From positions 1,054 to 44,012 of the forward strand of contig CAZHVT010000007.1 of NCBI GenBank assembly GCA_964536205.1: a DNA stretch of 42,959 nt, read 5' to 3'. The position numbers were made by a program, and so were the translations under genes. Positions 3,444 to 25,888 of the stretch are shown here, in pieces. The DNA comes from an uncultured Gammaproteobacteria bacterium (GTDB taxonomy: Bacteria; Patescibacteriota; Patescibacteriia; Magasanikbacterales; GCA-002688135). The stretch's first letter is position 1. Each line of letters opens with the position of its first letter. The notes under the pieces were generated by a model that saw only the letters and a list, made by a program, of their open reading frames with translations, did no database searches and was not told the origin of the DNA.

Positions 3444-6347
3444 ATGCAATGGATCAGATCGAAATTTTGTAACATAACGCGGCGTCAGATCGCGTTTCTT
3501 GCGATTGGAGCGGCGTTGCTTTTTGTATTTTTTCTGCCGTCTTTTGTTCATGCTGGGATGAGTATCACAAATATTTTGCAGATGATTTTGGGGAACTTGA
3601 TTCAGTGGCTCATGAACATCATTTCGCAGATTATGTTGTGGGCGATGAATGGTGTGGTTGCTGTAGCGATGTATAACGATTATGCGCATGCAACAGCGGT
3701 ATCGATTGGATGGATTTTGATTCGAGATATCACCAACATGTTTTTGGTAGCGTTGATGTTGATGATGGCTTTTGGAACGCTTTTGAATCGTGGAGATTTG
3801 TTGGGTGATTATAAGAGTTTGCCAAAGTTTGTGATCATCGCGATTGTGATCAATTTTTCAAAGATGATTACGTTGTTGATTATCGATATTGGTCAGGTTG
3901 TGATGCTCTCGTTTGTTGCAGCGTTTCAAAATAGTGCGGGTGGAAATTTCTTGAAAGCTTTTGGAATGACGAAGTGGCTGCAGGCTTCAACAGGGGGATC
4001 GGCTGCCAATTATGGAACTAATTTGGTATTAGCTTTGTTGATGGCTCTTGTGTTATCTGCGATTGTGTTGGTGGTGATGTTGGTTTTCTTGGCGTATCTG
4101 ATTGCTCGTATTGCGATGCTATGGATTTTGTTGATTTTTTCACCGCTCGCATTTGCATTGAAGTTGATGCCAACTCGAGGACAGAAATTTTATGGACAAT
4201 GGTGGGAATATTTAATTTCAACAATTATTGCAGGGCCGCTTCTGGCATTCTTTTTATGGCTGACGCTGATCACGGCTGGAGTTTCTAATGGTTCTTTGGG
4301 TACAGAGGTTATGGCGGATGCTGCGGCTGTTCGAGCGGCACAGCAGGGTGAGTTGGCTGCTGGGCAGAATGTTGGCAAACAATCTGGAATTACGATTTTG
4401 AATGAAGACACACTCACGACATTCATGATTTCTGTAATCATGTTGTTGTTGGGATTGAAGATCACTTCGGAGATGGGTGGTGTTGTTGGTGGTGCGATTG
4501 CGGGGAAGGGGTTGGGTGCGGTTAAGGGTGGCGCAAAGCTGTTAGTTAAAAAGGGGTACCAAAAAACAAAAGAGAAAGCGGCGAATACCAGAATACCGTT
4601 TACTGGTGGGCAAACGTATGCTGGGCGTGCGAAAGCAAAAAAAGCTATTAAGGAAGAGCGTCTGTCTTCCAATCAGAAATATGCCGAGTTGCAATCTCGT
4701 AAAGCTTTGGGAGATACCAGAGGTGCTGCAAAACTTGAAGCATCGTTAGTGAATGATGAACGTGAGAATGTGAAGGGTCTCAATCAGGCTGATAAGATTC
4801 AGGCTTTGAATAATGCTCCTGAAGGTTCTCTTGAGCAGCAAGCTATTAAGTTGGAGTTGGCTTCAGGCGGATATTATAATGATAAATTACATGAAGTTGA
4901 TGATGCTATTGGAGGGAATAAAGAATTTGGAATTAAATTTAAAGCTGAAATTAAAAAGTCTGGTGGTCAGGTGCTTGATATTAAACCGGGTCAGACTGCT
5001 GCGGAAGTAATTAGTGAAAAATTTGCAAATGGTGATAAAGATATTATTAAGAATTTGCCCTCAAGAGTTAAGTTGGCTCGTTCGAGTTCTGGTGAGGTGA
5101 AGATGGCTGATCCTCATGCAATGGATGTGTTGGAGGCTATTCCTCCGGATCAATTTGCGAAATATTCAGCTTCTCAAAAGCAGTCTGTCAATGATTCGTT
5201 TATGCTTGCCATGAAGAATAATTCAGATATGGCTAATCCGGATCAGGTTGCACAGCTGGCAAAATTGAAAGCTAAATTTGAGTCATTGAATGGCTTGGCT
5301 GGTGCAACGTATGATAATGCGGGTGGTGGAGGTGGTGTTGGTGATTATAGGTTGGTTTCAGCCCGTGTTACGGAGAAAAAGAATGCAAAGGGAGATATTG
5401 TGCGAAAAGAACAGACTGTTGCTGAATATGCTGACACAGCTTCTAAGCTTCGTGCTCGTCAAGGTTCATCAGTTGCTAAACAATCATCTGGCCTGTCTGC
5501 TGCCTCATTGACAGAACAACGAAAAGTAGATGGAGCGATTCCAGCGCAAGATGTCGCGGTTTCTCGTGGTGTTGCCTCAATGAGTAGTAGTGAGCGTAGT
5601 TTGTTTGATGCTTCAGCTTCTGTTATCACGAGTGATGCAGATGCAGATATTGCAGCTGGAAATTTTGCTGATGCTTCAACGAAGATGAGCACTGAACTTA
5701 CTAATATTGAGGATAGGTTTCGAGGGCTTGATGGAACCGGGCATTCTACAAAGGCCACAAATAAAGATGGTTCAACCATGACTAATGAAGAGGCTGTTGG
5801 AGGCAGTACGTTATCTGCTGCAATTAAGTCGCTGAAGGAGGCTGTTGATGCACGCGCTGCATTACCAGCCACAGCTACGGCTGCTGAAGAAGAAACTGCT
5901 ATGAAGCGAATTGCTGCTTTGCAGAAGGAATTGAAAGAAGTTGTTTTCAATGCACAAAGAAGACAAGGTGCGGTATCAGGTGCTTCAAGTAGATTGGGTC
6001 GAAAAATGCGAACAGGAGCGCGTAAGAAGTTATCTGTCAGTGCGCCTGCGGTTAAGAGTGCTGCAACAAGGGCTAATTCAGCAGCAACTGAATCTGATCA
6101 AGCTGCAGCTATTCGAGATTATCGTGCGGCTTTGGCCAAAGCAATGGATCATTTGCATGGTGCGAGTAAGGAAAGCAAGGTTCCTGTGGCAAGGCTCGGA
6201 GAAGTTGCTCAATTGAAGCGTGATTTGGCCATCATGGCTGGTAAGCTTCAGGCTAATCGTGTTGCTGGGCGAGATAATGCTGCAGACCTTGCTGAACTTA
6301 AACGTATTAAGGATGAGTTTGATCGTTTGAATGATGAATTAGGTTAG
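3444..6347 (+). CDS. VirB6/TrbL-like polytopic T4SS membrane protein with a long Ala-rich helical C-terminal extension
   Basis: About 8 hydrophobic segments in aa 1-350; GWILIRDITN, IVINFSKMI, RIAMLWILLIFSPLAF motifs; upstream of prgI and virB4. Confidence 0.75.
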   Translation: MQWIRSKFCNITRRQIAFLAIGAALLFVFFLPSFVHAGMSITNILQMILGNLIQWLMNIISQIMLWAMNGVVAVAMYNDYAHATAVSIGWILIRDITNMFLVALMLMMAFGTLLNRGDLLGDYKSLPKFVIIAIVINFSKMITLLIIDIGQVVMLSFVAAFQNSAGGNFLKAFGMTKWLQASTGGSAANYGTNLVLALLMALVLSAIVLVVMLVFLAYLIARIAMLWILLIFSPLAFALKLMPTRGQKFYGQWWEYLISTIIAGPLLAFFLWLTLITAGVSNGSLGTEVMADAAAVRAAQQGELAAGQNVGKQSGITILNEDTLTTFMISVIMLLLGLKITSEMGGVVGGAIAGKGLGAVKGGAKLLVKKGYQKTKEKAANTRIPFTGGQTYAGRAKAKKAIKEERLSSNQKYAELQSRKALGDTRGAAKLEASLVNDERENVKGLNQADKIQALNNAPEGSLEQQAIKLELASGGYYNDKLHEVDDAIGGNKEFGIKFKAEIKKSGGQVLDIKPGQTAAEVISEKFANGDKDIIKNLPSRVKLARSSSGEVKMADPHAMDVLEAIPPDQFAKYSASQKQSVNDSFMLAMKNNSDMANPDQVAQLAKLKAKFESLNGLAGATYDNAGGGGGVGDYRLVSARVTEKKNAKGDIVRKEQTVAEYADTASKLRARQGSSVAKQSSGLSAASLTEQRKVDGAIPAQDVAVSRGVASMSSSERSLFDASASVITSDADADIAAGNFADASTKMSTELTNIEDRFRGLDGTGHSTKATNKDGSTMTNEEAVGGSTLSAAIKSLKEAVDARAALPATATAAEEETAMKRIAALQKELKEVVFNAQRRQGAVSGASSRLGRKMRTGARKKLSVSAPAVKSAATRANSAATESDQAAAIRDYRAALAKAMDHLHGASKESKVPVARLGEVAQLKRDLAIMAGKLQANRVAGRDNAADLAELKRIKDEFDRLNDELG

Positions 6348-6357
6348 TTTGTATAGT

Positions 6358-8112
6358 ATGGATTTTGGGAATGAACAACAGATGAAGGATTTTGAAACCT
6401 TTATCGCGAATCATTCTTTGGAGGCGCATAAGGCCTCTCTCTATTCACTTGCGCAAGAATTGTTTGATGGAACTGTTTCTATTGATAATATTTCAGATCG
6501 ATTGTTTGATATATTTGGTGAGGATTCCGTTACGGATGAGAAGCGTTTGAATATCGAAGAGGATTTTTATGTTGGTTTGATATTTCCGTATGAGAAAGAT
6601 ATTAATGTTGCATTTGAGAATAACAAATTAAGTATACATGAGATTGTTGAGGCCATTAAAAAGGTGGTGGAAGTTTCTTTTGATGATAAGCGGATGAATC
6701 GTCGTTTTGATCATATTGTTGGACTTTTTTTTAAGGGTCAATATGATGTGCTGCGTACATCACGTTCGATGTCAAAGAGTACGAAGGCTGGTGGGATGGG
6801 ATTGGACACAGAAACTGGTCAGAAGATTATGCAGGAGTTGGTGAAGTATGAGAATCGTGTAAGTCTTGAGAAAACGAAGAAGGAGGATGTTGCGGAAGCT
6901 GCTGCAGTTGAAAAGAGGGAAGATGATGTTGCGAAATGGTTGGAGGAACACAAAGAGAATGAAGTTGTTGAAGAAAAACCTGTTGTAAAAAGTAAGAGTC
7001 AATTGAAGGGTGCGGATGCGCGGGGGGCTGCGAAGTTGAAGGCTGCGTTATCTCCTGAAAAAATCTCAAAACCTGCTGCTCCGAAAGTGCCAAAGAAAAA
7101 AGTTGTTAAGAAGGTTGCAAAGGAAAAAGTTGTGGTTGGAAAACAGCCGCAGATTGTGAAGAAAAAACGTCAGGTTGGTGATGTTGCGATTGCGGCGAAT
7201 TCGGAGACTGTGAAAACTGTTTCTGTTGGTGCAGGGGATATGTTGACAGATGAGGAGGTTGGACAGGTAAAGCATGCTGCAGCAGTAGTGAAATCAAAAC
7301 CTGTTCAACATGATACGCAGAAGGAATTGATGGAAAAGGTGAAGGAAACAATCGCGAAATCTGGGATTTCATATAAAGAACCAAAAATAGAGAAACAATT
7401 TCAGAGTATTGTGATGTCTCGTTTGAAGGATACGCGTGGGCCATATGAAACACGAGATGCGGTGATGAAGCCGGTGGAGCAAGGAGGTTTGGGTATGAAG
7501 GTTGATGAGGCGCAGAAATTTTTGCATTTGTTGGAAGCAGCGAATGATGAATTAACGGGTGCGTGGGAAGATAGGGAGCGTGAGAAGAAGATGGCGTATT
7601 TGCAAGATCGTCGAGCAAAATTATTTCATAGTAAACCTGCGGTGGTGGAGAAGGTGGCGCATAAAGGTACGTCGGCGGATGTGCGGACTGTGGTGAAGAA
7701 AAAGCCTGCGAAAAAACGTCAGCCGCATGTTGCGGATGGATTGAAATCTTCTAAGCCTGCGATGCATGACGTGAAAGCTCCGCCGAAATTGATAAATCCT
7801 GTTTCTGAATTGAAATCATATACGTTGGAGGATTTTCATCGATTGCATGCAGATCCGGTTGAAGCTGCGCTGAAAGTTGAGGGGAAGATTCGATTGTTAG
7901 GTCATGAGTCGTTTGTGATGATGAAAAAAGGAGCTGCAGCGTGGAAGCATTCTGAAGTGATGAAGATTTATAAGGAGCAATTGCAGCAGAGTATTGTGGG
8001 GAATATGCCATTAACAGATGTGATTGCAAAGCGAAAGGAGTCAGGGATGTTGGTGTTGGAGGTTGCGGAGGTTGAGGCGTTAACTGATTTGTCATCGAGA
8101 TTAAGAGGATAA
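6358..8112 (+). CDS. Hypothetical protein in the T4SS cluster, with a Lys/Val/Pro-rich linker and two GGxG-containing helical repeats
   Basis: Long ORF with genome-typical codon usage; internal similarity between KSTKAGGMGLDTETGQK and KPVEQGGLGMKVDEAQK. Confidence 0.8.
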   Translation: MDFGNEQQMKDFETFIANHSLEAHKASLYSLAQELFDGTVSIDNISDRLFDIFGEDSVTDEKRLNIEEDFYVGLIFPYEKDINVAFENNKLSIHEIVEAIKKVVEVSFDDKRMNRRFDHIVGLFFKGQYDVLRTSRSMSKSTKAGGMGLDTETGQKIMQELVKYENRVSLEKTKKEDVAEAAAVEKREDDVAKWLEEHKENEVVEEKPVVKSKSQLKGADARGAAKLKAALSPEKISKPAAPKVPKKKVVKKVAKEKVVVGKQPQIVKKKRQVGDVAIAANSETVKTVSVGAGDMLTDEEVGQVKHAAAVVKSKPVQHDTQKELMEKVKETIAKSGISYKEPKIEKQFQSIVMSRLKDTRGPYETRDAVMKPVEQGGLGMKVDEAQKFLHLLEAANDELTGAWEDREREKKMAYLQDRRAKLFHSKPAVVEKVAHKGTSADVRTVVKKKPAKKRQPHVADGLKSSKPAMHDVKAPPKLINPVSELKSYTLEDFHRLHADPVEAALKVEGKIRLLGHESFVMMKKGAAAWKHSEVMKIYKEQLQQSIVGNMPLTDVIAKRKESGMLVLEVAEVEALTDLSSRLRG

Positions 8113-8145
8113 AATATCTTTTATCTGTTATAATGTAAAAGAATC

Positions 8146-8256
8146 ATGAATAATGAATTATGAAGCATGGGTATGTGTCGTGGAGCGACATTTATATTAT
8201 TGAGCTTAGCTCAATTTCCGCCTACGTCATTATTCATATTTCATAATTCATTATTC
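8146..8256. repeat. Palindromic AT-rich heptamer-repeat element
   Basis: GAATAATGAATTATGAA ... TTCATAATTCATTATTC inverted arms built from 7-mers; preceded by TGTTATAAT at 8126-8134. Confidence 0.7.
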
Positions 8257-8262
8257 TCATGT

Positions 8263-8733
8263 ATGCCGCAGCAATATGTCGTGCCACAATTTTTAACTGT
8301 TGAGCCCAAAATTATTGGGCCTATTACGATGCGACAGTTTGTGATTTTGTTGGGTACGGCTTTGTTGATTGCGATTAATTTTAAGTTGTTAACATTGTGG
8401 TATTCGATTCCATTGTCATTGTTTGAGTTTGGTTTGGCTGCCTTATTTGCATTTTATAAAGTGAATGGATTGCCATTTCAGTATTTTGTATTGAATTACT
8501 TGCAGAATTTGAAACGTCCGAATGTGCGTGTGTGGAGTAAGGAATATACGAAAAAGGAGTTGAAAGTTTTTATGAGTATGAAGGCGCCGGAATTACCGGA
8601 AGCGGCGTTGGCGCGTGTGAGGCCTACTGAATCTCGTTTGGCGAAGCTGTCTTTGATTGTGAATACTGGGGGAGCGTTTTCTCCGGACGATCAGAAAGTA
8701 CTTGAACCAATGAAATTTGAGAAGAAAAAATAA
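8263..8733 (+). CDS. prgI: PrgI-family (VirB3-like) T4SS membrane protein
   Basis: QYVVPQF..EPKIIGPITMRQF N-terminal motif and two TM helices. Confidence 0.85.
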   Translation: MPQQYVVPQFLTVEPKIIGPITMRQFVILLGTALLIAINFKLLTLWYSIPLSLFEFGLAALFAFYKVNGLPFQYFVLNYLQNLKRPNVRVWSKEYTKKELKVFMSMKAPELPEAALARVRPTESRLAKLSLIVNTGGAFSPDDQKVLEPMKFEKKK

Positions 8734-8734
8734 T

Positions 8735-9445
8735 ATGCCCATCGACGAACAACACGAAGCTCGCAAAGAGGTCAGAACAAAATCGGTGAAACAGCGTGCT
8801 GCTGCAACCAAACGTTTTTTGGATATTTCTGAAATTCGTGATGGAGTTGTGGTTATGAAAGACGGAACGCTTCGTCGTGTTTTGATGGTTTCAAGTATCA
8901 ATTTTTTCTTAAAAGGAGTTGATGAGCAGGATGCGATTATTGCTGCATATGTGCAATTTTTGAATGCGTTGGAATCGCCTGTGCAGTTTGTGATTCAATC
9001 TCGAAAGTTGAATGTTGATCCATATTTGCAGATGTTAGTTGAGAAAGAAAAGGAGCATACAACTGATTTGATGAAAAGTCAGACTGCAGAGTATCGAGAT
9101 TTTATCACGCAGTTGATTGATTTACAGGATATTATGGAGCGTCGATATTTTGTGGTTGTTCCATATAATCCTCTCACAAATAAACAAAAAGGATTTTTTA
9201 AACGTTTTTCAGAATTGTGGGCTCCAGGTGCGACGATTAAATTGAAGGAAAAAGAATTTCAGAAACGAAAGTATGATTTGGATTTGTTAACTCAGCGTAT
9301 TTCTTCGGGGTTGTATCAGATGGGATTGGAGATTACGCAATTAGATACACAGTCTTTAATTGAACTTTATTATGATACGTATAATCCGGATGTGGCTGCT
9401 ACGGAACACCTTGAAGACATAAACAAAATACAAATCGACGGATAA
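8735..9445 (+). CDS. T4SS protein resembling the VirB4/TraC N-terminal region
   Basis: EIRDGVVVMKDG, VSSINF, EQDAII..Y..FLNAL, RRYFVVVPY, LIELYY; located between prgI and virB4. Confidence 0.75.
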   Translation: MPIDEQHEARKEVRTKSVKQRAAATKRFLDISEIRDGVVVMKDGTLRRVLMVSSINFFLKGVDEQDAIIAAYVQFLNALESPVQFVIQSRKLNVDPYLQMLVEKEKEHTTDLMKSQTAEYRDFITQLIDLQDIMERRYFVVVPYNPLTNKQKGFFKRFSELWAPGATIKLKEKEFQKRKYDLDLLTQRISSGLYQMGLEITQLDTQSLIELYYDTYNPDVAATEHLEDINKIQIDG

Positions 9446-9448
9446 CAT

Positions 9449-11290
9449 ATGGCATTTAATCTTAACGCACCAAAAGCAAAAGTGAAGCAAAAGGTTTCTG
9501 CGGAAGCTAAGGAGGCGAAGTATAATCTTTCGGCTTTGCAGGAGGAGCGCGTGTATCGACGCGGTGTGGTGAGTATTCATGATGTGATTGCGCCGCAAGC
9601 GATGAAAATAGAATCATCGTATTTGCGATTGGGTGATACGTTTGTGCGTACCATGTTTGTGATGACGTATCCACGATATTTGGCTGTTGGGTGGTTTGGG
9701 CCGATTATGAACATCAACAAAACAGTTGATGTGAGTATGTTTTTTTATCCCATTCCAGCTCCGATTATTTTGAAACAGTTACAGAAAAAGGTTGGTGAGG
9801 TGCAGGCGCAGTTGATGGCAGATGCACAAAGTGGTGCGCCGCGGGATCCTTTGCGTGAGGCTGCTTTGCAAGATATTGAAAAATTGCGAGATGATCTTAC
9901 GCAGGGGATTGAGCATTTTTTTCAGTTTGCATTGTATGTGAGTTATTATGCGAAGAGTTTGAAGGAGTTGGATCAGTTGACTGATGAGTTGGAGGGAATG
10001 TTTAGTAGTAAGTTGGTGTATACGAAAAAGGTGTTTTATCAGGCAGAGGCCGGGTTTAATTCGACTGTGCCGCTTGGATTGGATGAGTTGATGATTACAT
10101 TTAATTTGTCGAGTTCACCATGTGCAACTTCATTTCCTTTCATGAGTGCGGATTTAACATCGAGTTCTGGAGTTTTGTATGGTATCAATAATCATAATAG
10201 AAGTTTAATTATTTTTGATCGATTTAGTTTGCAAAATGGGCACATGGTTGTGTTTGCGACTTCTGGTGCTGGGAAATCATTTGCGATTAAGTTAGAGATT
10301 TTACGTTTGTTGATGTTGGGATCTGAAGTAATTGTGATTGATCCTGAAATGGAATATAAAGCGGTTTCAGATGCGGTTGGTGGAACGTACATTAATATTT
10401 CGTTGTCGAGTAAAAATAAAGTTAATCCGTTTGATTTACCGCGGCCAATGGAAGGGCAGACTGAAGGTGAGGATTTGATTCGATCAGCGGTTACGATTGT
10501 GAAAGGTTTGCTGCGATTGGTTTTGGTTGAGGTTACTCCGGCTGAAGATTCATTGCTTGATCGGGCGTTGTTGGAAACATACGCAAAGAAAGATATCACG
10601 CCTGACTCTGATTTTTCTAAGGTTGAGTCTCCGATCATGGCGGATTTCTTGGATATTTTGGAGGGGATGGAGGGTACGAAAAATATTATTATTAAGTTGA
10701 AGAAATATACTGAAGGGACGTTTTCTGGTTTGTTTAACTCGCCAACAACTGTGCAGACAAATAATAATTTAGTTGTTTTTAGTGTTCGGGATTTGGAAGA
10801 TGAGTTGCGTCCGATGGCTGTGTATTTGTTGATGGCGTACATTTGGAATGTTGTGCGAAGTGAGAAGAAGCAGCGCATTTTGGTTGTTGATGAGGCGTGG
10901 TGGATTATGCAGTTTGAGGATAGTGCGAAGTTTTTGTTTGCGCTTGTGAAACGTGGTCGTAAGTATTTCTTGGGTGTGACGACGATTACGCAGGATGTGA
11001 ATGATTTTTTGCGCAGTCCGTATGGACAGGCGATTGTGAATAACTCGGCTTTGCAGTTGTTGTTGAAACAATCTCCAGCTGCGATTGATGTAATTCAAAA
11101 GACATTCTTGTTAACGGATTCTGAAAAACATTTGTTATTGGAAGCAAAGCCAGGATATGGTATCTTTTTTGCAGGATCAAAACATGCTTCGATTTACGTA
11201 GCGGCGTCATTTCAGGAAACACAATTGGTGACGACTGATCCGAAGGCATTATTGAAGCAAAGAGCTGCAAAAGAAGAGAAAGAGGCATAG
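9449..11290 (+). CDS. virB4: VirB4-like T4SS ATPase
   Basis: Walker A ATSGAGKS, VIDPEMEY, VNPFD, Walker B ILVVDEAW, RGRKY, ITQDVNDF. Confidence 0.92.
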   Translation: MAFNLNAPKAKVKQKVSAEAKEAKYNLSALQEERVYRRGVVSIHDVIAPQAMKIESSYLRLGDTFVRTMFVMTYPRYLAVGWFGPIMNINKTVDVSMFFYPIPAPIILKQLQKKVGEVQAQLMADAQSGAPRDPLREAALQDIEKLRDDLTQGIEHFFQFALYVSYYAKSLKELDQLTDELEGMFSSKLVYTKKVFYQAEAGFNSTVPLGLDELMITFNLSSSPCATSFPFMSADLTSSSGVLYGINNHNRSLIIFDRFSLQNGHMVVFATSGAGKSFAIKLEILRLLMLGSEVIVIDPEMEYKAVSDAVGGTYINISLSSKNKVNPFDLPRPMEGQTEGEDLIRSAVTIVKGLLRLVLVEVTPAEDSLLDRALLETYAKKDITPDSDFSKVESPIMADFLDILEGMEGTKNIIIKLKKYTEGTFSGLFNSPTTVQTNNNLVVFSVRDLEDELRPMAVYLLMAYIWNVVRSEKKQRILVVDEAWWIMQFEDSAKFLFALVKRGRKYFLGVTTITQDVNDFLRSPYGQAIVNNSALQLLLKQSPAAIDVIQKTFLLTDSEKHLLLEAKPGYGIFFAGSKHASIYVAASFQETQLVTTDPKALLKQRAAKEEKEA

Positions 11291-17302: not shown

Positions 17303-17460
17303 GCGTCTCCTTAGTCTCTTTGACGGGCACTGTGCTGTTTAATTCACAGTCATTACTGGAGGAGTTGGTGATGTCTTGTTCAGTTTACTCCGCAAGTGTG
17401 GTATTTCTATCCCATCCACACTCGGAGCGCCGTAGCGCTAAATTCACATAGAGCTGTCAT

Positions 17461-17489
17461 ATCATAACCTGCGTTTGGCATTTTGTCAA
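17461..17489 (-). promoter_or_regulatory. Sigma70-like promoter overlapping the radA stop codon
   Basis: TTGACA-17 bp-TATGAT. Confidence 0.7.
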
Positions 17490-18844
17490 GATTTTTGGGT
17501 GAGTTTTTGTACTAGTGATTCGATGTTGTCGAGTTCGACAATTGAGAGATTTGTTTTGATTTTTGAATGTTTTTTGGGGACTATTGCGTAAGTGAATCCT
17601 AATCTGGCGGCTTCTTTGATGCGTTTTTCAAAGTGGGGGATTGAGCGGATTTCACCGCCGAGACCGATTTCACCAAAGGTGATTATTTTTTTTGAAACTG
17701 GTTTATCTTTGAGTGCGGAGACGATTGCGGTTGCAACTGCGACATCTGCGGCGCGTTCTTTTATTTTCATGCCGCCAGAAACGTTCACAAACACATCGTA
17801 GCTATCGAGCGGAAGTTTCATTCGTTTTGATAAAATTGCGATGATGATTTGTAAGCGATTCAAATCAAATCCTGAAGCTCTGCGTTGTGGAAATCCGAAT
17901 TGTGTATTTGTGACAAGTGCTTGGACTTCTACCAGGATTGGTCGTGTACCTTCGATAATGCTTGTGACAACTGATCCTGAAGAAGCTTCTGGTCGCTCTT
18001 CCAATAATAATTCTGATGGATTGGTGACTTGTTGCATACCTTCTTCACTCATGCTGAACATGCCAATTTCATCTACGGGGCCGAATCGGTTTTTTAAGGC
18101 TCGCAAGATCCGTGTTTCCCCAGAACGCTCTCCTTCAATTAAAAATAATGCATCGATCAGATGTTCGAGAGTTTTTGGTCCTGCAACTCCTCCTTCTTTG
18201 TTTACATGACCAATTAAAAATACGGGAATGTTATTTTTTTTCGCTGATGTTGTGATGATTGCTGCGGCTGCACGAACTTGTGAAATGCTTCCTGGTGCTG
18301 CATCAGAAACAGGGGATTGGATTGTTTGGATTGAATCGATGATTGCGCAGGCTGGTTTCTCCTTTTCGATTGTAGCGGCGATGTTTTCAGCGAGTGTTTC
18401 TTCCGAATACAAAATGTGTTCGTTTGTAATGCCGAGTCTGTTGGATCGTCTTGCTACTTGTGAGCCCGATTCTTCGCCGGAAATATATAACACCGACGAT
18501 TGTTTTGTGGCTAGTTTGTTGGCAACTTGCAAAATAAGAGTTGATTTTCCAATTCCTGGTTCTCCCGCTAATAACATGATTGATCCTGGTACAATTCCGC
18601 CGCCTAATACGCGATCCATTTCTTCGATATTTGTTTTAATTCGAGAAACTTTTTGTGTGTCTATGTTTGTGAGTGATTGTGTTTTCGCGGGGGAGCCGGT
18701 TACTTTTTTTTGTGTACCTAAGATAGCTGGAGTCTCCTCAATCATCGTTCCCCATTTTGAGCACTCAAAGCATTGTCCACTCCACTTCTGGGACTGAGCA
18801 TCACAGTTCGTGCATGTAAATATTGTTTTAACCTTGGTACTCAT
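17486..18844 (-). CDS. radA: DNA repair protein RadA/Sms
   Basis: C4 zinc finger, GEPGIGKSTL, IDSIQT, KNRFG, Lon-like C-terminal domain; start at ATG 18844. Confidence 0.97.
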   Translation of the reverse strand: MSTKVKTIFTCTNCDAQSQKWSGQCFECSKWGTMIEETPAILGTQKKVTGSPAKTQSLTNIDTQKVSRIKTNIEEMDRVLGGGIVPGSIMLLAGEPGIGKSTLILQVANKLATKQSSVLYISGEESGSQVARRSNRLGITNEHILYSEETLAENIAATIEKEKPACAIIDSIQTIQSPVSDAAPGSISQVRAAAAIITTSAKKNNIPVFLIGHVNKEGGVAGPKTLEHLIDALFLIEGERSGETRILRALKNRFGPVDEIGMFSMSEEGMQQVTNPSELLLEERPEASSGSVVTSIIEGTRPILVEVQALVTNTQFGFPQRRASGFDLNRLQIIIAILSKRMKLPLDSYDVFVNVSGGMKIKERAADVAVATAIVSALKDKPVSKKIITFGEIGLGGEIRSIPHFEKRIKEAARLGFTYAIVPKKHSKIKTNLSIVELDNIESLVQKLTQKS

Positions 18845-18869
18845 GATGCTTTGCTGCAAACAAGTTTTC

Positions 18870-18941
18870 CTGCCCAGCCCATCGTTGGGACTGAGCATCA
18901 CAGTTCGTGCATGTAAATATTGTTTTAACTTTCGTATTCAT
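18870..18941 (-). pseudogene. Duplicated radA 5' end (24 codons)
   Basis: MNTKVKTIFTCTNCDAQSQRWAGQ versus MSTKVKTIFTCTNCDAQSQKWSGQ; 61/72 nt identical with a 44-nt perfect core. Confidence 0.9.
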
Positions 18942-18942
18942 G

Positions 18943-20853
18943 TTATGGAACTTTTTTACACGATGCGCTAAATTTTTGACTGAAGTTGCTTGTTAATCTC
19001 GGATTTTGAGTTCTTGCGTGAAGTTTGTTGTTAAATGTTGCTCCTGCGGATTTTCCCATTTTTTCGAAGTCCCAGTGCTGTGCGTCAGTTCTGCTGTCTT
19101 GGCATTCCCCATGCCCACGTACTGTCTCGTCATTGATAGGGATGCCATAGGTAGTTCCTAGGTATTTTACCAATCTGCCCACCGCCTTATATTGAGCATC
19201 AGTCCATGTAACGTCATAATTGATGAGTTTTTTTACTTTCTTGCCCGTTTTTTTATTAGTGCGTGTTACCCATTTACCTCCTTCTTTTTTGAAAATGAGA
19301 TCGATCCCGATTGATTGGGAGTTGAATTTTTTTGCGTGATAAGTTTCGAGCAAAACGTCCGCAGTTTGGTATACTGTACCGTCTCGCCCTACGGTAAAGT
19401 GACTTGATGCAGGGAATCCAGATCCGTATCTTGCAGATCTCCAATCTACGATTTGTTTATATACCGGATAGTATACTTCTTTACCGAAACTTTTTGACCA
19501 ATTTTTTTGTGAATTTGCATGTGTTGCTGTACTTCTTCCGTTGTGCAAAATTATCAATACAATATTTTTCTTTTTGCGAAAATTTTTACTATTGTTGCAA
19601 TCCAAACTTCCGTAATAATCATAATTCATTTTGACGCCTGGTGGCTTGTCTTTTACCTTTGATGGATTTTTCACCTTACAATACGATGTATCTTTGAGGT
19701 TTTGTAACACTGCTTTTGGCGGCCTGTCATTTTGAACTTTATTTCGAGGTCCTGAATTCATTTTCGCACCACCAACAACACTTGGTTTGTTGCTTCCTGA
19801 ACTTTCGGCCGTTCCTCCAACAACACCTGCTGATGAACCACGAGAATTAAATTCAGCTTGCATTTCTGCTTCTTCTCTGTCGACTACTATAATATCTAGG
19901 ACTTGTAGCGACAAGATTTCTGGATTGATGATTGTTAATATGAAATACGAACCCAATAACAGTGCGAGCCCGAATGTTGCTCGATTTATTTTTTCTTTTG
20001 CTTGTTCAACTCGGCCAGATCCGCCTGCAGTCATCCATTGAATTCCTCCAATCATCATGATGATAATGGCGATGATGATTCCGACCCCTATGAGATAATT
20101 ATATGCAGCTGTTGCGTATTCTGCCAACCATGGGATATCAACACCTTTGTCATCTTCGTCTGCGGTTACTTTTGAAAATTGCAATCCCGGAATAGGTATG
20201 TGTAGTTTTGGTGTGGCGATGGGTGCTGGGGGAATCTTATCTAGTGGTTTGCCGGATGTTCCTGCTGCTTTTGGTGCCCACGCGCATTTTATTTTGTCTT
20301 TTACGGTGGGATTTTCTTTTTTGAAATTTGCTTGTAACCCTGCGCATTGTGTTGGGCTGTGGTTTGGTGTTGGTGTAATTTCTTTGCCTGGCACAGTGCA
20401 CGCACAGTCACCTTGTTTTTGTGTAAATTCTTTATTTGTTGTGCTGGTGCATTTGCCTGTTTGTCCTACTGCTAAATAACATGCTTTGGTGTCTGTATCT
20501 TCTTTTGATTTGCATGTTGTATAATCTACATTTTCAAAACACGCTCCTTGTTTTGGTGGTTGTTCGCCAATGATACAGTGACAGTTTCCGTTGCTTGTTG
20601 GGGGATTGGCAACCCATGTACATTTTTTTTCAAAGAATTTACTTGAAGGTTTTTGTAGATTTTGACAGTCATTGTTTGTTAATTCTTTGACTGGATCTTT
20701 AACTGCTTTTCCGCCTTTTGTCCCTGTTGTGGTACATGAGCATTTTCCGAGTTCGATTGCCTGTGTTTTTTGTAGTGGAATGAATACAAATATACACATC
20801 AATGCAATTGCTGCGACCATGAATTGATTTTTGTACACCGTATGTTTATACAT
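18943..20853 (-). CDS. Secreted Cys-rich protein with a T4SS-pilin (VirB2-like) domain and a C-terminal Amidase_2/AmpD-like N-acetylmuramoyl-L-alanine amidase
   Basis: Signal peptide; IMMIGGIQWMTAGG..AKEKI..A..GL.LLLGSYFIL..INP; IILH, SSHFTVGRDGTVYQ, YHA..NSQSIGI, QY..L, RGH. Confidence 0.8.
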   Translation of the reverse strand: MYKHTVYKNQFMVAAIALMCIFVFIPLQKTQAIELGKCSCTTTGTKGGKAVKDPVKELTNNDCQNLQKPSSKFFEKKCTWVANPPTSNGNCHCIIGEQPPKQGACFENVDYTTCKSKEDTDTKACYLAVGQTGKCTSTTNKEFTQKQGDCACTVPGKEITPTPNHSPTQCAGLQANFKKENPTVKDKIKCAWAPKAAGTSGKPLDKIPPAPIATPKLHIPIPGLQFSKVTADEDDKGVDIPWLAEYATAAYNYLIGVGIIIAIIIMMIGGIQWMTAGGSGRVEQAKEKINRATFGLALLLGSYFILTIINPEILSLQVLDIIVVDREEAEMQAEFNSRGSSAGVVGGTAESSGSNKPSVVGGAKMNSGPRNKVQNDRPPKAVLQNLKDTSYCKVKNPSKVKDKPPGVKMNYDYYGSLDCNNSKNFRKKKNIVLIILHNGRSTATHANSQKNWSKSFGKEVYYPVYKQIVDWRSARYGSGFPASSHFTVGRDGTVYQTADVLLETYHAKKFNSQSIGIDLIFKKEGGKWVTRTNKKTGKKVKKLINYDVTWTDAQYKAVGRLVKYLGTTYGIPINDETVRGHGECQDSRTDAQHWDFEKMGKSAGATFNNKLHARTQNPRLTSNFSQKFSASCKKVP

Positions 20854-20875
20854 GTATTTTATTATACCATGAGGC

Positions 20876-23434
20876 TTATGTGCCTGGGAGTGTCAAGAAT
20901 TTTCCACTTGAGGTTTTGTTTACGCCACATACACTTTCATCTACTACTCCTTCGGTCCATCTGCCTTTTACATGCACTCCTTTTGGTTTCAATTTTTTTA
21001 TTTTGTATTTTGTTAGTATGGTACATAGTTTTTCTGGTGTAATCGCTCTCCAAACTTTTGTAATTTCGCAACATCCGATTGGCTCTGAATTTTTACTTGA
21101 TGGGTAGACAAGGAAGTCAAATTTTTGTAATGCCTTATGATCCCTCATTTGCCATACTTGATTTCCGCTACATCTATCTAGTTTTTTATTTGCTGCATCT
21201 TTTACTTTTGTGCCTGCGTAAGCTTTTGACCATGGTTCATGTCCTTTAATAAGTCCGCATTTGCCACACGCGTTAAAAGCTTTTTGATTTTCTGCGTCAG
21301 TTATGGCGGTATCGTATGCATAGCCTGAACATCCAGGAAACCATTTTGATACATTTGCTGCGCCACCACCAGAACCCCAAATTTTTCCTTTACCGAGAGA
21401 AACTTCAATGTGACCAGATAGTTTGTAAATAAATCCGATTGGTAAGTTTTTGTAATCGAGTCCTGGATCTTTAAGATAAATGGTTGACCATCCTTTTGGA
21501 ATCATTGCTACTGTTCCTCCTGCAGCCCATGAGCTTAATGTGTTTCCGCAACCTATGTAGTTCATAAAACGTGTTGCTGACCACGCACAATGACAAGGTC
21601 CCATACAAATGCGGTTGTTTCCATCCTTTTTTCCTCCACGTGCATTAAATTGGCTTGCGAGGCTTATTGCTCTTTCTGATGAGCAGGGCGCTCCTGTAAG
21701 TACTGGATTAAATCCTGAAAATGCTTTTTTTGCGCTAACTGCTGATGCGGTGGAGCTGGGTTGGTAATCGCTTGCTGGATACACACCCTCATCTTCATCA
21801 TCAAAATGGATAGGGTCTGGAACTGCAGTTAGTAGCTCAAGTGCTTTGAATGAGAGAATGTTTGGATTAATAGTGAACAAGATGAGGTATGAGCCGACAA
21901 GTAACATGAGTCCCATAGTTGCGTTTCTGATTTTTTCTTGTGCTTTTCCGAGTCGGCCTGAATTTGCAGCGGTCATCCACTGAATACCTCCGATCATTAT
22001 TATGATAATTGCGACTATGATTCCAACGCCAGTAAAGTACTGATATGCAGCAGTAGCGTATTCAGCAAGCCAGGGGATGGTGATCGGGTCTCCGTGCTGT
22101 TCTTGTGTGATTGATTTCGTAAAGTTGAGGCCGGGGAGTGGTACGTGTAGTGTTGGGGCTGTGATGGGTGCTGGTCCGGGGGTTTTGGGTTTTCCGGCTG
22201 TTCCTGCTGCTTTGAGTGCCCATGTGCATTTTACCTCATCTTTGACTGTCGGATTAGCTTTTTTTGCGTTTACTTGTAGAACTGCACATTGTGTAGGATC
22301 GTGATTTGTGCTTGTTTTTGTTGTTTTGCCTGGGATTGTGCATGTGCAATCTCCGTTCGTTGTTAGAAAACTGGTATTTTTTGGTTCATCACATTTTCCA
22401 GATTGACCTGATGCTAAATAACATGCAAGGTTTGTGGTTCCTGTTTCTTTTGTTTTACATTCTGTGTCACTTTTTACTTCGTAGCACGTTTCGAGTTTTG
22501 GTGGGGCTTCTCCGTTGATACAATGACATAATCCTGCGCCGCCTGATGACTTGGGTGCTTCTTGTGGTTTGTCTGTTGGTTGTGTAACAGATTTTGCCCA
22601 ACCACCACACTTATCATCTAACACATGATCTGCAAAACATTTTTTTAAAACATCATAGTGACTATTTGGGGTTAATGTGAGTTTTGATTTTTTTGGATTT
22701 GTGTCATAGCCTTTTTTTGCGTTAATGCCTTCTTTTTTTGATCCTTTTTCTTGACCATAAAAAAATGCTTGGTAGATGCTACTCTGGTTCGCAATTTTTT
22801 TACAAGAATTGCCGTAACATGAATCAAGAAGAATTGCCTTGTTGACCGTTTTTGATTTCATGTAACCAAGAATGAATTCGCTCCCTCCGCTATGAGAAAC
22901 CAGATTGACAGAACTGCTGTCTGCATTGATTCCGAGTTCGTTTTTTAATACTTCTTTTGCTTCGGTCAGAAGACAGTTGAATTCCGATTCTTTAAATCCA
23001 GGTTTTGCTGCAATGTTTCCGTCGTTTACGTTTGGAGCCAGTATGTATACTGCATTGACGCCGTTGTCTTTGAGTACTTTTGCATTTTCACAAATTTTAT
23101 GATCTTTACACGATTGAATGTTGGAGTGTTGTGTCAGACCGTGGAAGTATATGTATATTGTGTTTACAGATCCAGAGACTCCATCAGGAATCACAATACC
23201 GCGCTTTTTTTTGATATAGAGCTTTTTGCTCTTTGCTGTAGTCTTACTTGTGCTTTTGGCGTGTTCGCATGTGGTGTTATATTCTCGAAATGTAGATCCT
23301 GATATGGATTGCTCTTTCTGTATTAGCTTACCGGCAGCTTGTGCTGTTGATGTGAGATTAAATGATATGAGAAGAAATCCTGCCAAAAAAATTGTCAGGA
23401 TTATGTTTTTTTTGCTTGTGATTGTTCTGATCAT
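20876..23434 (-). CDS. Secreted multidomain protein: alpha/beta-hydrolase-like, Cys-rich, T4SS-pilin and putative Cys-His (CHAP/NlpC-like) peptidase domains
   Basis: Signal peptide; YFHG, SHSGG, LLDS; pilin motif IMIGGIQWMTA..AQEKIRNA; HCAWSATRF and GHIEV. Confidence 0.7.
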   Translation of the reverse strand: MIRTITSKKNIILTIFLAGFLLISFNLTSTAQAAGKLIQKEQSISGSTFREYNTTCEHAKSTSKTTAKSKKLYIKKKRGIVIPDGVSGSVNTIYIYFHGLTQHSNIQSCKDHKICENAKVLKDNGVNAVYILAPNVNDGNIAAKPGFKESEFNCLLTEAKEVLKNELGINADSSSVNLVSHSGGSEFILGYMKSKTVNKAILLDSCYGNSCKKIANQSSIYQAFFYGQEKGSKKEGINAKKGYDTNPKKSKLTLTPNSHYDVLKKCFADHVLDDKCGGWAKSVTQPTDKPQEAPKSSGGAGLCHCINGEAPPKLETCYEVKSDTECKTKETGTTNLACYLASGQSGKCDEPKNTSFLTTNGDCTCTIPGKTTKTSTNHDPTQCAVLQVNAKKANPTVKDEVKCTWALKAAGTAGKPKTPGPAPITAPTLHVPLPGLNFTKSITQEQHGDPITIPWLAEYATAAYQYFTGVGIIVAIIIIMIGGIQWMTAANSGRLGKAQEKIRNATMGLMLLVGSYLILFTINPNILSFKALELLTAVPDPIHFDDEDEGVYPASDYQPSSTASAVSAKKAFSGFNPVLTGAPCSSERAISLASQFNARGGKKDGNNRICMGPCHCAWSATRFMNYIGCGNTLSSWAAGGTVAMIPKGWSTIYLKDPGLDYKNLPIGFIYKLSGHIEVSLGKGKIWGSGGGAANVSKWFPGCSGYAYDTAITDAENQKAFNACGKCGLIKGHEPWSKAYAGTKVKDAANKKLDRCSGNQVWQMRDHKALQKFDFLVYPSSKNSEPIGCCEITKVWRAITPEKLCTILTKYKIKKLKPKGVHVKGRWTEGVVDESVCGVNKTSSGKFLTLPGT

Positions 23435-24657
23435 TTCAATCTGATTTTTTCAACTGATCCACTGAAGTTGTTTTCGTAGAATAGATATTGGCCGTTTGGT
23501 GTGATTTGTAGGTTTGATGCGTTGACTGCATCGTCTGGAATAGCAAGTTGTGTTTTGAGTCCAGAGTTTGTATCGATTTTGTAGAAAGTGTCTGGTGTGT
23601 TGTCTGCGACGTCTGGTGCATAACCTGCTCCTTCTGGAAGCTCATTTGGTACTGCGCAGATAATTGATGTTTGTGAATCAAATGTGCATTTGTGTGCCCA
23701 TGTTGATACGCCGAGTTCGCGTCGATTTGCTCCGACGTTTGCACCATCCGCATTCACAACCCAAATAAGTGGTTTGTAATCGTTGAATTGTGAGTATGTT
23801 GAATACATTAATGAGTCTCCTGTCTCTGACCATTGTGGTTCAAATCCATATCCATCAACAATGAGTGATTTGTAATTTTCGTTGTTTTGTCCGATGAGAT
23901 AGATTTCGTTTGCTTCGCCGCCGACTGGATCTCCTGTTTTTGAGAATGCTACAACTTGTCCGCCTGGGTTCCATGCTGGAATAACTTTGTTTGCGTTGTC
24001 TCCGAGTGGTTCGATGCCGTGTGCATTTGATCCATCTGGATTTACGGTGAGCAACCAATTTTGTGAGCGATGAATTCCTTTTGATTTTGCAGAAATTTTT
24101 TGTCCGTTTTTTGCGAATTGAAAATCTTCCCAATGGCGGGGGAGTGTGACTTGTTTGTCGGTTTGAAAATCATATACAACGTTGAATCCGTCGGGGTATT
24201 CGATGACTGCTTTGTCTTGTGTTGGGGAAAATGCAACTGCATCAACATTAAAGAATGTTTTGTCAGTTAATAATTTTTGATTTCCATCTTCATCGATTTT
24301 GTAAAACTTTCCGTCATCTTTGTCGTAGAGTGTGATTCCGGAACCGTCTGCAGCAGCCGTGAGTCCCAAAGTTGAATTTTGTACAACAGTTTCTGTTTGT
24401 GTGATGCCTCCTTGTGCCACTGCATCTGTATCTGGAACGAGTGCTTCGAATGATTCAAATTCTTCTGGGTCTTCAACTGTAACAAATGAATCCTGTTCGC
24501 CAGCAAAGGGGAGTTCGTCTGGGAATTGTTGGGCAATTTCTTCATCTGTGACCGGTCCAGTGAAAATTTGGCGAAAGAAAAAGAAGTAGAGAGTGAATGC
24601 TATCGCAACGGATGCTACGATAAATATGGTTGCTAAGATTATCCTTCTTTTGTCCAT
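23431..24657 (-). CDS. Membrane-anchored beta-propeller (TolB/WD40-like) protein
   Basis: N-terminal TM; repeated FSPTQDK, WNPGGQ, WSETGD, ITPNGQYLF blades. Confidence 0.8.
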   Translation of the reverse strand: MDKRRIILATIFIVASVAIAFTLYFFFFRQIFTGPVTDEEIAQQFPDELPFAGEQDSFVTVEDPEEFESFEALVPDTDAVAQGGITQTETVVQNSTLGLTAAADGSGITLYDKDDGKFYKIDEDGNQKLLTDKTFFNVDAVAFSPTQDKAVIEYPDGFNVVYDFQTDKQVTLPRHWEDFQFAKNGQKISAKSKGIHRSQNWLLTVNPDGSNAHGIEPLGDNANKVIPAWNPGGQVVAFSKTGDPVGGEANEIYLIGQNNENYKSLIVDGYGFEPQWSETGDSLMYSTYSQFNDYKPLIWVVNADGANVGANRRELGVSTWAHKCTFDSQTSIICAVPNELPEGAGYAPDVADNTPDTFYKIDTNSGLKTQLAIPDDAVNASNLQITPNGQYLFYENNFSGSVEKIRLK

Positions 24658-24667
24658 ATGCGTCTCA

Positions 24668-25888
24668 TTATAGTCCGAATGCGGAGCATGCTAAGCTCAC
24701 ACCTGGCACATCACACAATTTAATTATGATTGCCATGATGAATATTATTATTAAGATTATACCACTAACTATGGCGCAAATGCGAACCGTGGGTTGAATA
24801 AGAGCATTTGCTAATCCGCGCATTGTTTTTTCAAGTTTGAGGTCTTTTCGGATGCCTTTGTTGTGTGCTGCGGTGATTTTTCCACTTTGTCTTGCGAAAT
24901 ATCTTTTTGCTTTTTTTGTTTTGATTCTGCGACTCATTTTTTTTGGTTTTTCTGGTGTTCGTGGTGTGAAAAAAAATCTTAGACTTTGAGAAAGTACTTT
25001 CATGATTCCTCCAAATGCGATATAGAGAATTCCGATGAGTGATGTGATGAGATATCCAGATAATGTGATTCCTCCTTTGAGTAGTCCATCTCCGACGGGT
25101 TCTGTGATAAGTGTTGGTCGACGTTTCATTTTTCCGCGTCGTCTTTTTTTTGCAAGATTTTTTTTGATCGCTTTTAATTCTGCCAGTGCGACGACTGCGT
25201 CAGTTTGTTCTTGAACGGTCTCTCTTTGCGGTATTTCTTGGTATTCATCATCATCAATTTGGTCATCAACAGTTCGGCCTTCTTGTAGGCGGGCTTGTTG
25301 GCGTATGGTGTTAAGATTTAGCGCCATTTGCGCATCGTTACTTATTTTTTGAGTCATTGGCTGTATCTTCTGAACTGAAATTTGTCCGACTTTTGATGCA
25401 GGCAGTGCTCCGGCTTCTTGCGTTTGGGTGTTTGGCCGCGATGTTTGTTGTTGTGATTGTACTGTTGTACTGGGATTTTTTGAAGAATTTTGAGCTTCTT
25501 GACTGCTTTTAGCTTTTTGTGTTTCTGCTGCTTGCCTCATTGTCGGTGCTTGTTGTTGGGTATTGGGTTTTATTGTAAGTATTTGGTTTCCTGCAGTGCT
25601 TGTTTGTGATTCTGATTGTGGTTCACCTGCTTGTGTTAGGGGAGGAGCTTGGTTTTGCTGAACATTTTTTACATCCTGTGAGTTAATTTTTTTCTCCGGT
25701 GATTGATTTTGTGTCCATTTTTTTACAGCATCTTTCATTGCATTTTCCATTTCGGAATTATCCAATGCGGTTTTAACCGCCTTAACATCTGTATCAGAAA
25801 TTTGCCCACCTGAAACTTGTGAGGTGAGCGCGCCAAGACTTTGTTTCAAGAAGGACTCCATCCCTTCTCCTTCAGATTGTGTTGCCAT
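24668..25888 (-). CDS. Hypothetical protein with a Gln/Thr-rich N-terminus and C-terminal TM helices
   Basis: 406-aa ORF within the minus-strand operon; low-complexity region followed by hydrophobic segments. Confidence 0.75.
   Translation of the reverse strand: MATQSEGEGMESFLKQSLGALTSQVSGGQISDTDVKAVKTALDNSEMENAMKDAVKKWTQNQSPEKKINSQDVKNVQQNQAPPLTQAGEPQSESQTSTAGNQILTIKPNTQQQAPTMRQAAETQKAKSSQEAQNSSKNPSTTVQSQQQTSRPNTQTQEAGALPASKVGQISVQKIQPMTQKISNDAQMALNLNTIRQQARLQEGRTVDDQIDDDEYQEIPQRETVQEQTDAVVALAELKAIKKNLAKKRRRGKMKRRPTLITEPVGDGLLKGGITLSGYLITSLIGILYIAFGGIMKVLSQSLRFFFTPRTPEKPKKMSRRIKTKKAKRYFARQSGKITAAHNKGIRKDLKLEKTMRGLANALIQPTVRICAIVSGIILIIIFIMAIIIKLCDVPGVSLACSAFGL

Follow-up and report, generated by a model that had tools for sequence, protein, structure and literature searches.

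The stretch of DNA analysed here, referred to as the window, comprises 42,959 nucleotides of contig CAZHVT010000007.1 (assembly GCA_964536205.1) from an uncultured patescibacterium of the order Magasanikbacterales. We characterized two adjacent open reading frames (ORFs) on its minus strand, named A and B. ORF A (18943..20853) encodes a protein of 636 amino acids (aa) composed of a signal peptide, a Cys-rich stalk, a VirB2-like hairpin, a linker and an Amidase_2 domain. ORF B (20876..23434; 852 aa) begins with a signal peptide, followed by an alpha/beta-hydrolase domain, the Cys-rich stalk and the VirB2-like hairpin, and continues after the hairpin with an NlpC/P60/CHAP-like domain and a small Cys-containing C-terminal subdomain. 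The spacing of the genes is operon-like; ORF B overlaps the upstream gene, which encodes a TolB-like protein, by 4 bp, the gap between B and A is 22 bp, and A is separated from the RadA gene by 41 bp. A sequence-only reading of this DNA had proposed that A and B are paralogs with a common scaffold and differing hydrolase-type domains, and BLASTP, Pfam and fold comparisons bore this out.

Comparison of A with B by BLASTP gave a single strong high-scoring segment pair (HSP), which spans aa 89-361 of A and 301-581 of B with 152 of 284 positions identical (54%, E 2e-76). Within it, a well-conserved core of ~240 aa corresponds to A 89-324 (window 19882-20589) and B 301-538 (window 21821-22534), in agreement with the ~225 aa that the sequence-only reading had placed at 19910-20590 and 21850-22530. 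All of the motifs it had quoted were also found, namely the 10 aligned Cys (CHC..C..C..CY..GKC..GDCxC..QC..KCxW), IPWLAEYA, SHSGG (B 180-184) and PxLHxPxPGLxF, which reads PKLHIPIPGLQF in A and PTLHVPLPGLNF in B. The shared segments of A and B were 66% identical at the DNA level (464/702) and a long identical tract was absent, indicating that they result from an old duplication and not from an assembly repeat. For the same reason, a recent duplication was ruled out, as was gene conversion between the two genes. Metagenome contigs from four DNA runs covering 17400-25000 were short, and identical wherever they covered the region. Note that one contig joint, from 20640 to 22680, was disregarded, as its shorter side had just 21 letters.

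The shared scaffold can be followed motif by motif in both proteins, and all features of A and B given here and below lie on the minus strand. In A, the hydrophobic N-terminus (aa 1-33; 20755..20853) is a predicted Sec signal peptide ending in ..TQA, as judged from a hydropathy scan. It is followed by an extra 4-Cys unit (CxC..C..CxW; aa 36-81; 20611..20748), which precedes the 10-Cys module, resembles the last unit of that module and appeared as a weak second BLASTP HSP (E 1.1). The 10-Cys module common to A and B occupies aa 89-193 of A (20275..20589) and aa 301-405 of B (22220..22534). After this module, A has PKLHIPIPGLQF, IPWLAEYA, a first transmembrane (TM) helix (TM1), a short basic loop, a second one (TM2) and INPEIL within aa 205-324 (19882..20241); in B, aa 416-540 (21815..22189) contain the juxtamembrane motifs, TM1 (~460-491), the basic loop WMTAANSGRLGKAQEKIRNAT, TM2 (~504-527) and INPNIL. 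The hydropathy scan delimited hydrophobic segments at 6-33, 246-278 and 291-324 of A and at 5-31, 460-491 and 504-527 of B. Specifically, a short K/R-rich loop (WMTAANSGRLGKAQEKIRNAT) connects the two hydrophobic helices of the hairpin, and INPxIL comes after the second helix. A signal peptide, two TM helices and a short basic loop, the combination that characterizes the type IV secretion system (T4SS) pilin family PF18895, are thus predicted in both A and B.

The relationship of this hairpin to pilins was examined by profile-profile comparison with hhalign, for which 30 enzyme-linked hairpins of this and related genomes were set against six small pilins of this genome, all of which exceed the PF18895 cut-off. 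The two profiles matched with a probability of 99.0% (E 7e-18) over 61 columns across TM1-loop-TM2, indicating that the hydrophobic domain is a VirB2-like hairpin. The two-helix, T4SS-pilin-like domain that had been noticed in the sequence therefore shares its ancestry with the VirB2-like PF18895 pilins of this genome. In the alignment of the 30 enzyme-linked sequences, the outer-face motifs PxLxIxIPGLxFS, IPxxGxYI and INPxL were conserved, as features of this hairpin subfamily. Given the N-terminal signal-like segment and the basic loop, both flanks of the hairpin are predicted to be extracytoplasmic, with the basic loop inside. All Cys residues common to A and B fall in the predicted outside parts, DsbA-like genes recur beside the hairpin genes (see below), and a position outside the cell would be fit for Cys-rich modules as well as for wall hydrolases. 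The Cys-rich module is probably disulfide-bonded; it gave no usable match in the ESM Atlas.

In ORF A, a low-complexity linker without a Pfam match (aa 325-425; 19579..19881) leads from TM2 to a domain of the N-acetylmuramoyl-L-alanine amidase family Amidase_2 (aa 430-585; 19099..19566). This domain scored 59.6 bits against the PF01510 cut-off of 26 (E 5.2e-16), and it also matched endolysin/amidase families of PHROGs. Putative Zn ligands are H438 (ILHNG), H581 (RGH) and D590 (RTD), as suggested by a weak alignment to PDB 7f5i and by what we take to be the corresponding motifs of AmpD and T7 lysozyme. The domain had been called an AmpD-like amidase. Its membership of the generic Amidase_2 family held, whereas an assignment to AmpD itself did not, since A scored 17.7 bits against the cut-off of 143 for the AmpD equivalog (NCBIfam NF008758). 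In addition, AmpD is cytoplasmic, while A is predicted to be extracytoplasmic. The remaining wall hydrolases of this genome comprise three proteins of the M23 family and a single NlpC/P60 protein, all of which lack a hairpin, and a profile search of the genome found no Amidase_3 and no SLT domain.

The N-terminal domain of ORF B (aa 34-294; 22553..23335) has the features of an alpha/beta-hydrolase, with Ser182 (in SHSGG), Asp204 and His259, and an FHG oxyanion motif at 97-99. Its AlphaFold2 (AF2) model (pLDDT 87.2, pTM 0.88) gave at least 500 matches to alpha/beta-hydrolases of the PDB at E<=1e-3 with Foldseek, and the top matches were polyester hydrolases/cutinases and esterase D/S-formylglutathione hydrolases (E 1.6e-8 to 1e-7, TM-score 0.48-0.62). 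In an alignment of 20 sequences of this domain, S149, D171, H226, F64 and H65 were nearly invariant, and G151 and G66 were invariant; the alignment residues correspond to S182, D204, H259 and F97-H98-G99 of B, where the GHSxG elbow reads SHSGG. Judging from the model, the domain is a serine esterase/lipase-type alpha/beta-hydrolase, and the conserved Ser-Asp-His and the fold matches in the PDB support the earlier notion, drawn from SHSGG, of an N-terminal alpha/beta-hydrolase-like domain. At the sequence level, the domain had no match in Pfam or the PDB, and searches of NCBIfam, PHROGs and PDB sequences with B gave no match to its N- or C-terminal enzyme domains. Word-index searches with the N-terminal domain returned no relatives, longer lengths giving only B itself, and the ESM Atlas returned unnamed clusters, with esterase families as distant leads only. 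By six-frame search, the domain was found in 25 of the 240 genomes of the order, and a domain of this type was located N-terminal of a hairpin in 18 of 19 fetched ORFs.

After the hairpin, B continues with a predicted papain-like domain of the NlpC/P60/CHAP type (aa 583-781; 21092..21688) and a small C-terminal subdomain with a conserved CC..C (aa 782-852; 20879..21091), which was barely covered by fold matches. The C-terminal domain as a whole (aa 557-852) was found in 19 of the 240 genomes, and Cys60 and His119, which are Cys616 and His675 of B, were invariant in 18 sequences of it. In its AF2 model (pLDDT 73.5), Cys60 opens the helix 60-70 and His119 opens the strand 119-125. When the model was compared with 48,161 chains by VIA-align, the best rows were NlpC/P60 or CHAP wall hydrolases by title, including PlyGRCS (8h1i_A; Z 8.6, which is barely above the level that the tool states for unrelated models; root-mean-square deviation 3.2, 122 aligned), MepS (8xud_I; Z 8.5) and LytE (8i2f; Z 6.9). 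Furthermore, P0021, a distant relative of this domain, showed a weak NLPC_P60 match (20.8 bits against a cut-off of 23). We assigned the domain to the NlpC/P60/CHAP type because the fold matches were consistent, a helix begins with the Cys and the strand that follows carries the His; the invariant Cys and His and the papain-like fold matches agree with the Cys-His peptidase-like domain recognised earlier. The distribution of B is patchy, as neither terminal domain was found in the four other genomes of its own family. The same three-part architecture is present in an 895-aa ORF of genome G021, which belongs to another family.

To see how widely the scaffold occurs, we used its 246-aa form from B as the query against 1.84 billion cluster representatives. 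At E<=1e-3 there were 11,731 matches, the weaker of which must include plain pilins, and at E<=1e-10 there were 2,290. The best 150 matches, with lengths of 141-891 aa, were scanned with Pfam, the first 75 at E<=1e-3 and the second 75 at E<=1e-4, and some of the Pfam matches fall below Pfam's own cut-offs. At the E-values used, PF18895 was present in 132 of the 150. A peptidoglycan-hydrolase domain was found in 74 of them, always C-terminal of the hairpin, and was of seven kinds: VanY/M15 (24), C39-like (16), NlpC/P60 (10), SLT (9), Amidase_2 (7), glucosaminidase (4) and M23 (4). Two relatives, P0060 and P0145, have a GDSL lipase besides SLT. A recognised enzyme domain was absent in 76 of the 150; since the C-terminal domain of B itself has no Pfam match, such relatives may still carry an enzyme. 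As an observation apart from this, P0012, P0014, P0063, P0067 and P0094 have two or three tandem PF18895 hairpins per polypeptide (up to 96.5 bits summed), and such concatenated 'pilins' sometimes occur with an SLT domain (P0075, P0132).

In a retrieval with a 5-sequence hairpin alignment, 79 related loci were obtained, whose record titles name groups of the candidate phyla radiation (CPR), among them Parcubacteria, Uhrbacteria, Magasanikbacteria, Komeilibacteria, Peregrinibacteria and Saccharibacteria. Some titles read 'uncultured Gammaproteobacteria', 'Bdellovibrionales', 'Methanoregula' or 'Methylomirabilis', and these look like mislabels from bulk submission. For a comparison of the locus itself, 18 loci were fetched from related genomes of several families. 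One or two hairpin-enzyme genes directly adjoin RadA in 16 of the 18, with RecG beyond it on the opposite strand, and a gene for a TolB-like beta-propeller protein lies on the other side in 15, followed by ClpB, HtpX and LemA. Which enzyme occupies this syntenic locus depends on the genome, as the survey of C-terminal diversity suggested by the sequence-only reading revealed: Amidase_2 was found in G002, G003, G015, G021 and G031, SLT in G012 and G031, C39_2 in G020, M15_4 in G006, G023, G027, G033 and G038, and a C-terminal domain of the B type in G010, G015, G016, G021 and G027. Five relatives without Amidase_2 at the locus had none elsewhere in the genome, indicating that the catalytic module was replaced and not merely relocated. 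In a tree of the hairpin region, the SLT and Amidase_2 genes of G031 were sisters (Shimodaira-Hasegawa-like approximate likelihood ratio test (SH-aLRT) 99), as were the two genes of G012 (99), and the Amidase_2 gene of G021 was the sister of the M15_4 gene of G038 (95); A and B formed a clade (97) with the Amidase_2 genes of G002 and G003. The idea of swappable catalytic ends thus gained support from the seven kinds of enzyme among the best relatives, from the differing enzymes at the syntenic locus and from sister scaffolds that differ in their enzyme. These sequence comparisons indicate that, across CPR bacteria, the scaffold persists and its catalytic module has been swapped repeatedly.

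The window also contains a monoderm-type T4SS module (3444..11290, plus strand), 7.6 kb from the A/B pair. It comprises genes for a 967-aa polytopic protein with ~7 N-terminal hydrophobic segments, possibly VirB6-like, for proteins of 587 and 242 aa, both without a Pfam match, for a PrgI/VirB3-like protein (PF12666) and for a VirB4-like ATPase (P-loop_TraG, AAA_10). Between this module and the pair, which is on the opposite strand, are the genes for a ComFC-like protein (12028-12693), RecG and RadA. The module accords with the earlier statement that Patescibacteria carry a T4SS with multiple pilin-like genes. A VirB4 orthologue was found in 229 of the 240 genomes of the order; the 11 genomes without it correspond to the count expected from incompleteness alone. 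The distance between virB4 and the locus is 10 kb or less (from 5 kb) in this genome (G000) and in G002, G015, G021 and G038, which represent two families, and 25 kb in G033. As distances in other genomes, given below, are far larger, linkage of the locus to T4SS genes is lineage-specific.

Among the neighbours of the pair, the TolB-like beta-propeller protein (23431..24657, minus strand, 408 aa) is membrane-anchored; it showed 36-52% identity in 14 relatives, with many invariant residues. A gene for a DsbA-like thioredoxin with an N-terminal TM segment lies between the TolB-like and hairpin genes in 13 of the 18 loci, and the assignment was confirmed by Pfam (Thioredoxin_4/DSBA) in both of the two tested. 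No DsbA-like gene was found in the window by hmmsearch, and one is present directly upstream of a third paralog on contig C14 (L160 3004-5140). This third paralog has 473 aa with a Cys-rich C-terminal part and is followed by UvrA. Between ClpB and the TolB-like gene, the window has a gene for a 406-aa protein (24668-25888, minus strand) with a Q/S/T/K-rich low-complexity N-terminal part, two C-terminal hydrophobic segments and no Pfam match; G003 has an unrelated-looking 209-aa protein at that position. A Gp49-like ORF of 104 aa (30225-30539, minus strand; PF05973, HigB-type toxin family) adjoins LemA and HtpX. On the RadA side, 97 bases of the RadA start region (18788-18886) are missing from one metagenome contig of run X1, and at 18853 contigs of runs X3, X4 and X5 carry 37 other letters.

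With moderate confidence, we propose that both proteins are modular wall hydrolases that are tethered to the membrane and face outward, and that they place VirB1-type activity on a VirB2-type anchor. A and B would be exported via the N-terminal signal peptide and anchored in the cytoplasmic membrane by the VirB2-homologous two-helix hairpin, and the Cys-rich module and the juxtamembrane motifs would form a common stalk. A would then hold a MurNAc-L-Ala amidase on a flexible linker of ~100 aa, and in B the stalk would be preceded by a serine esterase/lipase-type hydrolase and followed by an NlpC/P60/CHAP-type cysteine peptidase. Selection would act on local breaching of peptidoglycan near the membrane and not on one particular bond, as the free exchange of bond specificity favours 'make a hole' over one defined housekeeping reaction. 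VirB1-type wall opening on a VirB2-type anchor is in our view the most likely role, and such opening would serve envelope-spanning machinery, for example the T4SS, and perhaps also the host contact zone. The purpose of the hole may also be another machinery of the cell, cell separation or the host wall. The enzymatic activity and substrate of A and B, and any link with the T4SS, are predictions from sequence.

Several observations weigh against this proposal. A and B remain below the PF18895 (T4SS_pilin) cut-off of 26.6 bits, with 19.9 and 19.6 bits, respectively (25.2 and 23.9 bits in a six-frame search); close relatives exceed it, P0006 for instance with 27.6 bits. For the C-terminal domain of B, no Pfam match was obtained even at E<=5, its model had no Foldseek match at E<=1e-3 (many of the weak rows were NlpC/P60), and the best Z score from VIA-align was low, as noted above. 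At the position after the catalytic His where papain-like wall peptidases have a third polar residue that orients this His, 17 of 17 other relatives have E, D or Q, whereas B and its closest relative P0006 have Gly, so that the peptidase of B could be weakened or inactive, although another residue may substitute. The locus is a block of core genes (ClpB, RadA, RecG), and virB4 is 94 kb away from it in G016 and >300 kb away in the complete genomes G023 and G028. Five draft genomes without a VirB4 match still carry hairpin-enzyme genes, where a loss of ~5% is expected from incompleteness. A is the sole Amidase_2 or Amidase_3 protein of a genome that is 99.4% complete, which fits a housekeeping autolysin. 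Southlakia has the only CPR T4SS that has been examined by genetics; its seven PF18895 proteins are all small, and its hydrolase SEML1_0006 is a three-domain protein apart from them, according to Table S2 of PMC10633639 as far as that source was accessible.

Part of this evidence would suit A and B being housekeeping autolysins for growth of the own wall or separation of daughter cells, with the hairpin as a mere anchor recruited from the pilin-like pool and no tie to a T4SS or a host. Their setting in a conserved core block (ClpB, TolB-like, DsbA-like, RadA, RecG; 16 of 18 fetched loci), the presence of hairpin-enzyme genes in 40 of 41 related genomes, the position of A as the only amidase, the remote virB4 of G016, G023 and G028 and the draft genomes lacking a VirB4 match all point in this direction, and the core-genome synteny and sole-amidase status in particular keep the idea alive. 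However, autolysins usually keep their bond specificity, whereas here the enzyme varies at the locus and between sister scaffolds, and five relatives have no Amidase_2 at all. The three M23 proteins and the NlpC/P60 protein, which are untethered, could do the housekeeping, and the conserved outer-face motifs of the hairpin subfamily suggest a specific partner, not a passive anchor. We thus regard a purely housekeeping function as doubtful. That B at least is enzymatically dead, its peptidase degenerate and its role that of an adhesin or scaffold binding the wall, seems highly improbable to us. The Gly in B and P0006 would fit it, and inactive VirB1 homologues have been proposed as adhesins in some Gram-positive conjugation systems, according to the accessible part of PMC12857230, but the catalytic Cys and His are invariant, B included, the Ser-Asp-His triad of the N-terminal domain of B is intact, and A keeps a full-scoring Amidase_2.

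The polymorphism of the enzymes and the homology of the hairpin to VirB2-like pilins also keep alive the idea that A and B are incorporated in a pilus, cap it or are displayed at contact sites and cut the host wall, their polymorphic ends tracking the wall chemistries of hosts. Both termini are predicted to face outward, the catalytic turnover on a conserved carrier resembles polymorphic effector systems, and an esterase of the cutinase/esterase D fold, as well as the GDSL fusions P0060 and P0145, would suit wall layers other than peptidoglycan. Southlakia moreover cannot grow epibiotically without its T4SS and pilin array (Wang et al. 2023, PMC10633639, accessible part). On the other hand, the accessible parts of the literature on Patescibacteria show no pilus made of PF18895 proteins, and large globular domains at both ends (~430 aa before and ~310 aa after the hairpin in B) would be hard to fit into a helical lattice. 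No immunity-like gene is evident beside the A/B pair, the locus is a core syntenic block and not a variable island, and the linkage to virB4 is lineage-specific, ranging from 5 kb to >300 kb among relatives. Taking both sides into account, we consider attack on the host wall by such a route quite unlikely. Equally speculative, and similarly improbable in our judgement, is a version of 'enzymatic pili' in which the hairpin-enzyme fusions co-assemble with small VirB2-like pilins or cap them, so that a T4SS-driven filament carries exchangeable heads that degrade the wall (amidase, peptidases, glycosidases, esterase) to the host envelope. If it were true, it would account for the lack of VirB1 in Patescibacteria as well as for their essential pilin arrays, and would provide a mechanism by which epibionts open the host wall to feed.

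These proteins constitute a very large CPR-wide set in which wall hydrolases are fused to a VirB2-like module and the catalytic part is rapidly exchanged. The accessible part of a study that surveyed Patescibacteria for VirB2-like PF18895 genes and their arrays (Quinonero-Coronel et al. 2025, PMC12102498) states that most members with VirB2-like genes have no recognised VirB1-type wall hydrolase, and the role of the T4SS and of VirB2-like pilins in this group is called completely unknown in PMC11665869, in its accessible part. Few other systems have been shown to be essential for the epibiotic life of Patescibacteria. The hairpin-enzyme fusions are a candidate for this 'missing' wall-opening function. 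For the study of host-wall attack, the family would also offer a defined set of proteins, and its members would form a natural catalogue of lysins that are modular and tethered to the membrane. Even if A and B were only housekeeping autolysins, PF18895 would still be no reliable marker of pilins, and counts of CPR 'pilin genes' would be affected. Full-text searches of the literature outside subscription journals returned no description of hydrolase-pilin fusions, and the accessible parts of PMC12102498 and PMC10633639, including Table S2 of the latter, mention none, but Table S3 of PMC12102498 may list some of them without comment. Domain-architecture databases presumably show this combination of domains.

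Compared with known systems, the catalytic parts of A and B resemble phage endolysins and NlpC/P60 or CHAP autolysins. PlyGRCS (8h1i), MepS (8xud), LytE (8i2f) and CwlO (8wt3) best match the C-terminus of B (Z 6.9-8.6), the amidase of A matches endolysin/amidase families of PHROGs, and catalytic domains are shuffled modularly in both cases. Sequence identity is 6-15%, and unlike endolysins and autolysins, A and B lack the usual cell-wall-binding domains, have a predicted permanent membrane tether and stand in no phage context. The anchoring part resembles the VirB2-like pilins of Patescibacteria in its TM1-loop-TM2 hairpin, its loop entry G-x-W-M-T-A-x-G and its N-terminal signal peptide. However, canonical VirB2-like pilins have 130-190 aa and end right after TM2, whereas A and B have 636 and 852 aa, with outer-face motifs and enzymes. 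Contig C1 of this genome has an array of ten PF18895 pilins, and two further ORFs of this contig (500 and 765 aa, stop to stop) encode a Cys-rich ectodomain with the hairpin at the C-terminal end and no enzyme domain assigned; unlike these Cys-rich fusions, A and B continue past the hairpin into hydrolases. Besides these two kinds of pilin fusion, the genome has a third at C8 (G000:C8:14529-18950; L002, L009), where two PF18895 proteins (frames of 690 and 780 aa) have an N-terminal hairpin and long extracellular regions.

A close functional parallel is with the VirB1-type proteins of monoderm conjugation systems, whose known homologues all have a membrane anchor and at least one extracellular enzyme domain, as described in the accessible part of PMC12857230. 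Like A and B, PrgK (pCF10), TraG (pIP501) and Orf14 (Tn916) are, on the same partial source, modular, membrane-anchored extracellular wall hydrolases that vary by system, and the domains of this class (CHAP/NlpC, SLT, muramidase, LytM) serve local wall opening. This likeness is one of description, and three differences accompany it. The predicted anchor of A and B is a VirB2-like hairpin with a signal peptide and a Cys-rich stalk, in place of the single N-terminal TM segment of PrgK, TraG and Orf14, and enzymes of the A/B type can stand on either side of the anchor. Moreover, unlike the genes of these VirB1-type proteins, those of A and B belong to a core chromosomal block outside the T4SS operon.

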